64,000 nucleotides of DNA, taken from positions 79,254 to 143,253 of the forward strand of contig CBDFJU010000003.1 in assembly GCA_965248515.1 (NCBI GenBank). Reading direction: 5' to 3'. Shown in pieces: positions 4,919 to 16,205 of the stretch (position 1 is its first letter; every line of letters starts with the position of its first letter). A model generated the notes under the pieces. The model was not told where the DNA came from and did not search any database. It worked only from the letters and a program-made list of their open reading frames with translations. The stretch is from Dehalococcoidia bacterium (GTDB lineage Bacteria; Chloroflexota; Dehalococcoidia; SHYB01). A program made the position numbers and the translations under genes.

Positions 4919-6046
4919 ATGGCCACCGCTAAGCGCGATTACTACGAAGTCCTGGGGGTTACTCGCAACGCCACCGAGGAAGACCTGCGCAAGGCCTTTC
5001 GCAAGAAGGCGTTCGAGTCTCACCCCGACCGGAACAAGTCGCCCGACGCCGAAGGCCAGTTCAAAGAGGCCAACGAGGCCTACGAGGTCCTGCGCGACGC
5101 AAAGAAGCGGGCCCAGTACGACCGCTTCGGCCACGCCGGGGCGAACGGCGTCGGCTTCGATGGCTCATCCGGCTTCCCCGACTTCGGCGACATTTTCGAC
5201 GCGTTTTTCGGTGGCACCGGGTTCGGGACGTCCACTCGCGGTCGGGCCCCCGCGGCCGAGCGAGGGGCCGACCTGGCCGTGGAGCTCGAAATCGAATTCG
5301 AGGAGGCGGCCTTCGGCGCCGAGAAGTCCTTCGACATCACGCACACCGAAACGTGCTCACGGTGCAAGGGCAGCCGTAGCGAGCCAGACTCCTACCCAGA
5401 GAAGTGCGGACAGTGCGGAGGCACGGGCCAGGTCCGCCAGGCGCAACGGAGCGTGTTCGGCCAGTTCGTCAACATCACCGATTGCAGCCGCTGCCGAGGG
5501 CTCGGGAAGATCGTCACGAGCCCCTGCACGCAGTGCAAGGCTCAGGGCCGAGAGCGCCGGAGGAAGTCGATCGCGGTGACCATCCCCCCAGGCGTCAACT
5601 CCGGGTCGCAGATCCGCCTCGCCGGCGAAGGCGACGCGGGCATCAACGGCGGCCCCGCAGGCAACCTCTTCGTCGCGCTCGAGATCAAGGAGCATGCCCT
5701 GTTCGACCGCGACCAGGACAACGTCCTGTACACCCTCCCCATCAACATCATCCAGGCGACCCTGGGCGACGAGTTGGACGTCCCCACCATCGAGGGCTCG
5801 ACACCCCTCAAGATTCCGCCGGCCACACAGCCGGGCACAGTGTTCAGGCTCAAGGGCCGGGGGATATCCCATCTCCGCGGCCATGGCCGTGGAGACGAGC
5901 TGGTAACAGTGGACGTGGTGATCCCGAAGTCGCTGAGCGCGGCCGATAAGAAGCTCTTCGAAACGCTGGGCAAGAGTCTCAAAAAGCCGGACATATCGAA
6001 GCGCGACAGCGGCTTCTTCGAGCGCATCAAAGAAGCGCTCGGGTAG
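4919..6046 (+). CDS. dnaJ: molecular chaperone DnaJ
   Basis: J-domain (HPDRN), G/F region, four CxxCxGxG zinc-finger repeats. Confidence 0.9.
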
Positions 6047-12531: not shown

Positions 12532-13008
12532 GCATCTCCTTCAGTAGAAATCGCGTCGGGCCGCTCAGGCGGCGTAGTGTTCGGATGGTAGCCCGCACGG
12601 CGGTTCCCTCGGCCAGAACAATTGGGAGCGGCTCCGCAAGCCCGTTGCGACAGGTCGCTAGTCGCGGGCTGAACAGGCCATTGCCGGGGTGCCGTCCATG
12701 GGCCGCCCTGCGGAGCCGCGTCAGGCGGGAGGTTCTACGGCCTCCGGGCGAGGGCTGCGGCCCAGGCTGCCTCGCCGGGGAAGAAACCCGATACCAGCCA
12801 TCAGAGCGGGTGCGATACCCTGCGGAACCACGGGGCCCCGGTGCGTGCGGGACACACTCGATAGCCAGTGCGTTTTTGCGGATCTTTTAATCAAACTGGA
12901 TGTGGACCTCGGGGTACGCGGCGAGTGTACACGGGCGCTGTGATTTGTCAACGCCCGCGAAAGCTCGCCGGTATCGCCGAACGACGCCCTGGCGCTCGAG
13001 AAGAAGGG

Positions 13009-13539: not shown

Positions 13540-13691
13540 TTCCGTACTCCCCCGGAGCCTCGTGTTCCCTTGGGCCGCGAGGCAACGCGAGGCCCCAAGG
13601 GATTCTAGCGGCGCCCCCTGGCTCGTTCAACTTGCTTTCCCCCGTTCGCCTTCTGTAGAGCGCGCGTTTCACGAATCGAGCCTATGCCCTC

Positions 13692-13721
13692 TTGACACAT
13701 TTAGAACATCTGTACTATTAT
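13692..13721 (+). promoter_or_regulatory. promoter TTGACA-N18-TATTAT
   Basis: consensus -35 and TA-rich -10 in AT-rich patch upstream of 13779 CDS. Confidence 0.55.
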
Positions 13722-13733
13722 TCACCCAAGCAT

Positions 13734-13749
13734 TAGAACGCCTGTTCGT
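13734..13749 (+). promoter_or_regulatory. LexA/Cheo-type SOS box tAGAAC-GCCT-GTTCGt (perfect GAAC-N4-GTTC)
   Basis: palindrome read directly, lies between -10 and RBS; second imperfect copy AGAACATCTGTACT at 13703-13716 overlaps the -10. Confidence 0.5.
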
Positions 13750-13778
13750 CACGACAGCATGGCTTAGGAGTAGACACC

Positions 13779-14561
13779 ATGCCGGCAACAATGGAACGGT
13801 TCATCAGCGAGACTCCGGAGCACCAGCCCAGCCTGTTCAGCGCAGACTGGGCGTCCCGGGCCGAGCGCTTCCCGACACGAGCGACTGTCCACATTCCAGC
13901 GCAAGCCGCGGAGCGGGCGTACCCCGCGCGGACGGGACGCCTTTTCAGCCTGGGGCAGCGAGGCCTCCTCATGGGGGAGCATCCCCGACGCCGAGGGCCG
14001 GCCGCCGGAAGAGCTTATGTCGCCGGTGTCGCGCTCCCTCCCGGCAGCTCGGTCTCACGTCTCAGCCAGGTCTGGGACCGCGTCACGGTGACCATTGGCG
14101 AGCTCGACCTTCGCGACCCCCAGCCGGTCCTCCACGTCGTCGAGCACTATCGATGGCCCCTGGGGGCTGTCGATGCCGGTTTCCAAGGCATCGAGCGGCA
14201 GCTTGACGCCGACTGGAACTGCCGGCGCATCGTCGTCGGAGAGCCCTCCACGACAGGCCGCTCGAAGACCCGAGGCGCCGTCGAAATCCTCACCCTGGCG
14301 CCCGAATCGAAGTCGAGTCTCGCCGCTAGCCTGCTCCAGGCCGCCAGTGCGGCGCGAATCAAGATGTACGCGTCCGATGGCTCTCAAGAGCAGCAAGAAT
14401 TCTGGGCCCAGGCCGTGAAGGCGCAGGCCCGTTACGGACCGGACGGAAGTCTGGACTTCTTCGTCGAGCACAGCACGGGAGGCGATGGGTTCCTCCTGAG
14501 CTTGGCCCTGGTGGCGGAAGCGGCGAGGGCCCTGCTCTCGCCCAAGGCGAGAGCCGCCTAG
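13779..14561 (+). CDS. hypothetical protein (putative SOS-regulated)
   Basis: AGGAG RBS; no recognisable domain. Confidence 0.55.
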   Translation: MPATMERFISETPEHQPSLFSADWASRAERFPTRATVHIPAQAAERAYPARTGRLFSLGQRGLLMGEHPRRRGPAAGRAYVAGVALPPGSSVSRLSQVWDRVTVTIGELDLRDPQPVLHVVEHYRWPLGAVDAGFQGIERQLDADWNCRRIVVGEPSTTGRSKTRGAVEILTLAPESKSSLAASLLQAASAARIKMYASDGSQEQQEFWAQAVKAQARYGPDGSLDFFVEHSTGGDGFLLSLALVAEAARALLSPKARAA

Positions 14562-14620
14562 GCAGACCGGCCTGGACAGAGGCTCCAGGCCGCAGCGACA
14601 TGCACCACGGGAGGACTACC

Positions 14621-14917
14621 ATGCGAAGGAACGAGCCGTCTATCGATCGTTTGCCGGAGCTCACGCTCTTTCGGGACAACGGATGCGACATCCACCCCGC
14701 CTGCCTGACCTGCCCGCTGCCCCAGTGCCGCTACGACGATCCGGGGTGGATGCAGCGCGAGGAGCGCGATCAACGGGACACCCAGATATTGCAGGCGCGG
14801 GCACAGAAAGCCCTCCCCGTACACGAGCTCGCCGCCCAGTTCGGCGTCAGCACCCGCACGGTACACCGCGTCCTGCGACGCATCGACGAGGAGCAACACG
14901 TTCTCGTAGCGTCCTAG
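14621..14917 (+). CDS. small Cys4 (C-x5-C-x2-C-x4-C) protein with C-terminal HTH
   Basis: GGGAGG RBS before MRRNEPS; CDIHPACLTCPLPQC cluster; LPVHELAAQFGVSTRTVHRVL helix-turn-helix. Confidence 0.5.
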   Translation: MRRNEPSIDRLPELTLFRDNGCDIHPACLTCPLPQCRYDDPGWMQREERDQRDTQILQARAQKALPVHELAAQFGVSTRTVHRVLRRIDEEQHVLVAS

Positions 14918-16128: not shown

Positions 16129-16205
16129 TGGTCGGGGCGCCGAGATTTGAACTCGGGACCCCCTGCACCCCATGCAGGTGCGCTACCGGGCTGCGCCACG
16201 CCCCG
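16129..16205 (-). tRNA. tRNA-Pro (anticodon GGG)
   Basis: 77 nt cloverleaf folded by hand: 7-bp acceptor CGGGGCG/CGCCCCG, D stem GCGC, anticodon stem CCUGC/GCAGG with loop AUGGGGU, T-arm CCGAG-UUCAAAU-CUCGG, encoded CCA. Confidence 0.9.

Follow-up and report, generated by a model that had tools for sequence, protein, structure and literature searches.

A 64,000-nucleotide stretch of a contig from a Dehalococcoidia bacterium (CBDFJU010000003.1; hereafter, the window) carries a compact unit of two open reading frames, ORF-A and ORF-B, which code for proteins of 260 and 98 amino acids (aa), respectively, and are preceded by an AT-rich patch with a promoter and two operator-like palindromes (Table 1). 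A first-pass annotation of this DNA had located the promoter, both palindromic boxes, and both ORFs, and all of them were found at the positions claimed. The window was compared with 95 homologous loci, numbered L001 to L095; a scan of species-representative genomes found 484 relatives, the best 80 of which, nearly all Dehalococcoidales and none from the window's own species, were used. Judging by the source names of homologues, the window comes from a high-GC lineage of Dehalococcoidia or Chloroflexota.

The promoter matches the consensus at 11 of 12 positions and is the top promoter-like site in the 3.5 kb between positions 12900 and 16400 (shuffled sequences give 0.4 sites). The patch is the sole strongly conserved intergenic block in a footprint alignment of five lineages (the window, L001, L002–L004, L087/L088, and L089): the surrounding intergenic DNA aligns poorly, and the −35 and −10 elements and both palindromes are retained despite an ORF-A identity of just 35–40%. 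A two-gene operon behind a strong promoter, as annotated, is supported. The core of operator 1, AGAACATCTGTACT (13703–13716), overlaps the −10 hexamer, and operator 2, tAGAACGCCTGTTCGt (13734–13749), is located between the −10 element and the Shine–Dalgarno sequence of ORF-A. No conserved upstream activator site was seen in the alignment of the window-clade promoters.

Table 1. Features of the two-gene unit and its surroundings (positions in the window unless a locus is named), and related loci in Dehalococcoidales and other relatives.
Feature	Position	Strand	Remarks
AT-rich promoter/operator patch	13690–13760	+	GC 0.53 (13600–13799) vs. 0.64–0.72 in flanks
−35 hexamer, TTGACA	13692–13697	+	invariant in window, L001, L002, L087, L089
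Operator 1, TAGAAC-ATCT-GTACTA	13702–13717	.	one half-site mismatch; overlaps −10
−10 hexamer, TATTAT	13716–13721	+	18-nt spacer; aligns with TACTAT, TATTCT, TAATCT, TACTAT of relatives
Operator 2, TAGAAC-GCCT-GTTCGT	13734–13749	.	perfect GAAC-N4-GTTC; ~+8 to +20 of predicted transcript
Shine–Dalgarno of ORF-A, AGGAG	13766–13770	+	kept in alignment
ORF-A, 260 aa; truncated, degenerate C-terminal domain of terminase large subunit (TerL)	13779–14561	+	by homology and predicted fold
ORF-A N-terminal tail, residues 1–47	13779–13919	+	predicted disordered; pLDDT <50
QPSLF, ORF-A residues 16–20	13824–13838	+	in predicted disordered tail
Degenerate catalytic motif 1, YVAGVALPPG	14016–14045	+	ancestral Y[IV]AGIDLAGE; Asp to Ala; alignments
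Degenerate catalytic motif 3, GGDGF	14478–14492	+	ancestral GHDDF; alignments
Shine–Dalgarno of ORF-B, GGAGGA	14610–14615	+	precedes ATG 14621
ORF-B, 98 aa; four-Cys knuckle and C-terminal HTH regulator	14621–14917	+	start ATG 14621
Cys cluster C22-x5-C28-x2-C31-x4-C36	14684–14728	+	invariant in 21 homologues
tRNA-Pro (GGG)	16129–16205	−	directly after pyrD; ARAGORN and Rfam in E-value mode
Complete element, ~12.5 kb	L094 3012–15516 (also L036, L092, L093)		head-type gene cluster
TerS-TerL-regulator-portal in one row	L012, L056		L056: ABC-transporter-like (host-type) genes directly after
TerL with in-frame TAG, then regulator, then host genes	L006
Independent internal deletions of structural genes	L005, L027, L031		TerS, TerL, regulator intact
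Internally deleted TerL, regulator, portal	L095		near pyrD fragments

ORF-A had been described as a protein with no recognizable domain. Although Pfam gives nothing for it directly, homology and predicted fold show that it derives from the C-terminal nuclease domain of TerL. The distant homologues of ORF-A are proteins of ~450 aa with an RNase H-like PF17289 (Terminase_6C) domain, and an AlphaFold2 model of ORF-A, with a predicted local distance difference test score (pLDDT) of 76 overall and confident at residues 50–260, adopts the same RNase H-like fold. When the model was submitted to Foldseek, the top nine Protein Data Bank (PDB) matches were all TerL nuclease domains or TerL, the best being those of G20c (5M1F), P74-26 (5TGE), HK97 (6Z6D), and P22 (4DKW), with E-values from 4e-7 to 1e-3. 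The structural motifs HYRW, W-C, and the SLAL helix are conserved and shared with TerL. A sequence-profile search of the PDB returned no match, and the TerL origin is visible only via intermediate homologues and the fold. Identity to the window protein is 78–90% in near relatives and 35–40% in far lineages; full-length TerL has phage relatives at 24–32% identity.

ORF-A differs from TerL in features that define the latter. Homology begins at residue 232 of full-length TerL, so the ATPase half is missing: ORF-A has no N-terminal ASCE ATPase domain with Walker A and B motifs and no P-loop, and starts instead with a new disordered tail of ~50 residues. The full-length homologues (455 aa) retain the Walker motifs together with GIDLAGE, VDATG, and GHDD. 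In ORF-A, the Asp of motif 1 is replaced by Ala (it is also lost in L087, L089, and P0008), motif 2, VVDATGxG, is deleted or replaced (IVV-----GEPS), and HDD of motif 3 has become GDG. The short forms all have Ala in motif 1, a deleted or replaced motif 2, and GDG, GDD, or DDG at motif 3; two of the three catalytic carboxylates are lost in the window, L087, L089, and P0008. Since the ATPase domain and these carboxylates are gone, ORF-A is predicted to be unable to hydrolyse ATP and very probably unable to cut DNA, which would leave it incapable of packaging. As two defining features are absent, ORF-A should not be regarded as a functional member of the terminase family. It is, unlike TerL, encoded at a syntenic chromosomal position with no capsid genes nearby, and most likely serves as a non-catalytic DNA- or protein-binding partner. 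Within the tail, QPSLF(S) is kept between the window subclade and L087 amid diverged flanks, and is absent from L089 and P0008; its likeness to the β-clamp-binding pentapeptide QL[SD]LF invites speculation at most.

ORF-B combines a C-x5-C-x2-C-x4-C cluster with a C-terminal helix-turn-helix (HTH), just as annotated; the latter matches HTH_23 with an E-value of 2e-6. The other Pfam matches were HTH_11, Sigma70_r4, and, at 0.0065, Mor, and a match to the PHROG family “late transcriptional activator” was obtained at 2e-5 (4e-9 for the L056 homologue). The profile matches (HTH_23, sigma-70 region 4, and Mor) span the HTH part only, and fold and sequence searches with ORF-B, PADLOC likewise, gave generic HTH matches. 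ORF-B resembles the Mor/C family of phage Mu (PHROG 836/532) in its small size, in its C-terminal HTH, and in being encoded within a morphogenesis region, the E-values being 2e-5 to 4e-9 for PHROG 836 and 0.1 for the Mor structure 1RR7, again for the HTH part alone. The N-terminal four-Cys knuckle, in contrast, is not a Mor feature, and a tblastn search of 50,697 phage genomes with ORF-B produced no match.

Homologues of ORF-B share two invariant motifs, D-x-GC-x5-CL-x-CPL-x2-CRYD and FGVSxRTVxR, and ORF-B identity across the clade is 62–76%, far above that of ORF-A. The four-Cys part, where the structure model is poor, is a putative metal-binding knuckle that may coordinate Zn or an Fe–S cluster. 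At residues 22–40 (14684–14740), the sequence runs from the Cys cluster through an invariant RYD to a near-invariant Pro, found as PGW in the window clade. A WhiB-like Fe–S protein was considered on account of the Cys spacing and the PGW sequence; no WhiB appeared among the Pfam matches shown, with E-values of up to 1.

The ORF-A/ORF-B pair adjoins pyrD in at least six lineages (the window, L001, L002–L004, L087/L088, L089, and a sixth identified by its gene list), and in six lineages each ORF has kept its reading frame and approximate length. The ratio of nonsynonymous to synonymous substitution rates (dN/dS) was calculated by a simple counting method for three lineages (the window, L001, and L002). 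It was 0.19–0.24 for ORF-A and 0.05–0.06 for ORF-B, compared with 0.23–0.25 for pyrD and 0.32–0.41 for the gene of an upstream membrane protein. These values indicate that purifying selection acts on both ORF-A and ORF-B.

A probable source of the pair is seen in Dehalococcoidales. There, the TerL homologue is full length, is 56–82% identical between species, has a small-terminase (TerS) gene upstream, and in 37–43 loci has the same host neighbours, an RNase H gene and a CT398-like gene. In the complete element of L094, promoter P1 is followed by TerS and TerL, and then, on the opposite strand, by genes for an immunoglobulin (Ig)-repeat protein and a small HTH_17 protein; the second part comprises promoter P2, an ORF-B homologue, portal, scaffold, HK97-type capsid, and about nine small or unknown genes, after which comes rpsU. 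The capsid protein (305–307 aa) is 83–100% identical among the best 120 of 5298 homologue clusters. No integrase, replication, or lysis genes are present in the L094 cluster, and tail genes are not recognizable. With these features and its fixed flanks, the element looks like a gene transfer agent (GTA), a candidate new lineage. It shares with GTAs of the RcGTA type a head cluster of ~12.5 kb that lacks integrase, replication, and lysis genes, a fixed position across many species, unusually conserved structural proteins, and apparent host stress-type control; it differs from them in that it is not known to form particles or transfer DNA, in its unrecognizable tail genes, and in that many lineages have it partly deleted, the window clade having two genes only. 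ORF-B homologues are located between TerL and portal in this parent element, and ORF-B descends from the regulator encoded there. In most Dehalococcoidales loci (e.g., L094 4827–7265 (−) and L005 11394–13964 (−)), the opposite strand between TerL and the regulator encodes the Ig-repeat (Big_6/TIG) protein, which is membrane-anchored, 512–893 aa long, and just 25–45% identical between species.

Several loci are in intermediate states. In L006, the TAG at 48–50 falls between the ATPase part of TerL and its nuclease part, which is 244 aa long, retains the catalytic motifs, and is directly followed by the regulator; L006 may capture the origin of the short form in progress, or the stop may be a sequencing error. 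In L005, portal is reduced to 87 aa (14401–14873). In the TerL of L095 (6442–7536; 364 aa), an internal deletion has fused the last two nuclease motifs directly to the N-terminal ATPase part, and the pyrD fragments lie 4 kb away. Judged by these loci, the terminase gene and the regulator persist as the rest of the element vanishes, and the window clade is the extreme case.

We then turned to the palindromes. In the five aligned lineages, operator 1 keeps its half-sites, GAAC/GCAC ... GTAC/GTGC, with varying spacers, and operator 2 is invariantly GAAC ... GTTC with the spacers GCCT, ACAC, GTCT, GTGC, and GCCT. The spacing between the two is 31–33 bp, or about three helical turns, which places both on the same side of the helix. 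L087 (7114–7191) and, with the same arrangement, L088 (1871–1948) contain three palindromes at intervals of exactly 33 bp (GCAC-N4-GTTC, GCAC-N4-GTGC, and GAAC-N4-GTTC); GCAC-N4-GTGC corresponds to operator 1, and the additional site lies a further 33 bp upstream of the other two. Such in-phase palindromes suggest that binding is cooperative and confined to one face of the helix.

Operator 1 is homologous to TAGAACATATGTGCTA, found at promoters P1 and P2 of ~60 Dehalococcoidales loci, where it overlies the −10 element of both the TerS-TerL and the regulator-portal operons. The pattern AGAAC-N4-GT[GTA]CT occurs at 81 sites in 751 kb of related loci, compared with 3.1 in shuffled sequences, and nearly all of these sites are at P1 or P2. 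Both promoters are built from GACAAAA, ~6 nt, a −35 element (TTGAC at P2), N5, and TAGAACATATGTGCTAWT; the P2 type also includes the window promoter, TTGAC-N5-TAGAACATCTGTACTATTAT. The L095 promoter bears a perfect 16-bp palindrome, TAGAACATTCGTTCTA (5378–5393), that is homologous to operator 1. The GACAAAA element, just upstream of the −35 element and ~25–35 bp upstream of the operator, is present at both promoters (L005–L086) and lacking in the window clade; an activator, conceivably the ORF-B homologue, could bind to it.

Footprinting across lineages thus backs the annotation of the palindromes as operators of the Gram-positive/Chloroflexi LexA class, placed for repression. A perfect and an imperfect box are both present as described, but the imperfect one is not an auxiliary site: it is the ancestral, class-wide copy, and the perfect one is a clade-specific addition. 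The operator, if it is of the LexA type, would have been retained since before the split of the major Dehalococcoidia lineages.

The LexA motif of Gram-positive bacteria is GAAC-N4-GTTC (PMC3323433). Operator 2 is a perfect copy of this palindrome and operator 1 has one mismatch; the former is located between the −10 element and the Shine–Dalgarno sequence and the latter spans the −10 element, as expected for repression. LexA of Dehalococcoides ethenogenes reportedly binds the same sequence. Because of this double match, we take LexA to be the repressor and DNA damage the inducer, an assignment made from the motif that we consider quite likely. Compared with the Cheo box, CGAACATATGTTCG, of Bacillus subtilis DinR and Dehalococcoides LexA, the candidate sites have the same GAAC-N4-GTTC core and AT-rich centre, and likewise overlap the core promoter and early transcript as multiple in-phase sites; they differ in that their flanks are TA...TA rather than C...G, and in that the ancestral copy has GTGC or GTAC in the half-site over the −10 element. 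Queries on the Dehalococcoides/Chloroflexi LexA box, on LexA together with terminase, and on a Dehalococcoidia GTA found nothing relevant in the literature searched.

On balance, we think that a phage-type packaging/head module has left this two-gene operon behind and that the host has retained it under SOS-type control. The annotation had proposed a de novo SOS effector; by homology, the cassette is instead a domesticated remnant of a phage-like module. In the proposed mechanism, a repressor, most probably LexA, would occupy both in-phase palindromes, which belong to the TAGAAC-N4-GTTCTA class and lie over the −10 element and at ~+8 to +20, respectively, and its dimer would block the near-consensus σ70 promoter. 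DNA damage would cause LexA self-cleavage, free the promoter, and lead to strong transcription of both genes. ORF-B, once induced, would act as a DNA-binding transcription factor, presumably an activator, while ORF-A would act non-catalytically, by binding to DNA, to ORF-B, or to the portal or terminase of another element.

Several observations weigh against this proposal. The 64-kb window has a single perfect GAAC-N4-GTTC, operator 2, and 0.8 are expected at random; one such box per 64 kb is close to chance, so the window alone cannot establish an operator. A tblastn search of the window and ~850 kb of loci with queries from E. coli and B. subtilis found no recA, lexA, or uvrA. ORF-A, which has no match in Pfam, PHROGs, or PADLOC, evolves fast between lineages (35–40% identity, compared with 73–76% for ORF-B). 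The second half-site is GTGC rather than GTTC in >90% of the Dehalococcoidales sites, which could mean another repressor, and ORF-B, an HTH protein encoded behind the operator, could itself bind there.

The last two points lead to the strongest alternative, in which the palindromes are the operator of an element-specific regulator, in the simplest case ORF-B acting as an autorepressor, with no response to DNA damage. ORF-B is encoded directly behind the operator, and may dimerize through its putative metal knuckle; the operator always accompanies ORF-B homologues, and the GTGC of the Dehalococcoidales consensus extends to operator 1 of L087 (GCAC-N4-GTGC). However, the G of GTGC completes an extended −10 element (TGnTAWTAT), which would account for the constant departure from GTTC, and where this constraint is absent, as in L027, L030, L095, and operator 2 of the five window-clade lineages, the site is a perfect GAAC-N4-GTTC. 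The consensus, AGAACATATGT(T/G)CT, is nearly identical to the LexA box of Bacillus and Dehalococcoides, including its AT-rich centre (PMC3323433). In addition, the best family matches of ORF-B are activators, not repressors, and the operator is equally conserved at P1 copies that have no ORF-B homologue within 6 kb (L010, L064, and L083). We therefore regard autorepression as a serious but rather unlikely explanation.

A bolder version of the LexA-controlled operon, which we hold to be slightly less likely still, is that the parent element is an ancient, vertically inherited, LexA-controlled particle-forming element, i.e., a new GTA lineage, whose control module was exapted in the window clade into a damage-response effector. 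ORF-A might in that case be a dominant-negative decoy against phages that the same signal induces, blocking their portal or terminase, or, alternatively, a non-cutting factor that binds DNA ends, or the clamp via its QPSLF tail.

The unit could also belong to a working dispersed particle system (a GTA or a satellite) with capsid, portal, and an intact terminase elsewhere, switched on by ORF-B. The GTA-like parent element, with its 12.5-kb size, fixed position, and conserved capsid, and the resemblance of ORF-B to late activators are consistent with such a system. It is nevertheless improbable, because a TerL that lacks ATPase and nuclease activity cannot package DNA, and because no TerS, portal, scaffold, or capsid homologue was found in the 64-kb window or, in relatives, at a distance of up to 8 kb from the unit.

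That ORF-A and ORF-B are relics of a prophage, decaying neutrally and without a function today, is more doubtful again. ORF-A has indeed lost its ATPase domain and active site, and among related loci deletions have arisen independently many times, alongside a single in-frame stop (L005, L006, L027, L031, L095, and L090), but low dN/dS values (0.2 and 0.05, equal to or below that of the neighbouring housekeeping gene), together with frames that remain intact in six lineages diverged to 35–40% in ORF-A, exclude neutrality in practice, and the promoter, operators, and ribosome-binding sites are conserved as well. Finally, a novel SOS effector with a RecA/ImuA-like fold accompanied by a regulator, as the annotation had suggested from the operator arrangement, is scarcely credible, given that homology and the predicted fold indicate a terminase RNase H-like nuclease domain, that no RecA-like structure was among the significant Foldseek matches, and that ORF-A has no P-loop.

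Domesticated phage genes and SOS-controlled prophages are both well known. If the locus is a retained operon under SOS-type control, as we favour, it would add to these a terminase nuclease domain that stands alone, is no longer catalytic, and yet is maintained by purifying selection, the long-term association of this domain with the regulator of its own element, and the wiring of this pair to an ancient LexA-type operator; no description of any of the three, of this unit, or of its parent element was found in the literature searched. ORF-A matched none of the PADLOC defence-system models, and the unit fits no known anti-phage defence system. To our knowledge, the damage response of this phylum is almost unknown, and the unit is a concrete candidate member of its SOS regulon. 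Dehalococcoidales are environmentally important and hard to cultivate, and they carry a position-stable 12.5-kb head cluster with an extremely conserved capsid. If this cluster makes particles, it would be a new GTA lineage and a candidate route of gene exchange, e.g., for dehalogenase genes.

Two other features of the window lie outside the unit. A whole-window Rfam run at the gathering threshold missed the tRNA-Pro gene, and its empty result therefore carries little weight; apart from this tRNA, Rfam returned nothing. Between two minus-strand genes, at 12532–13008, there is a GC-rich (0.63–0.72) stretch of ~480 nt with no convincing ORF, no Rfam match, and no excess of RNA structure (z 0.19); a promoter-like site is located inside it, on the minus strand, at 12951–12924.

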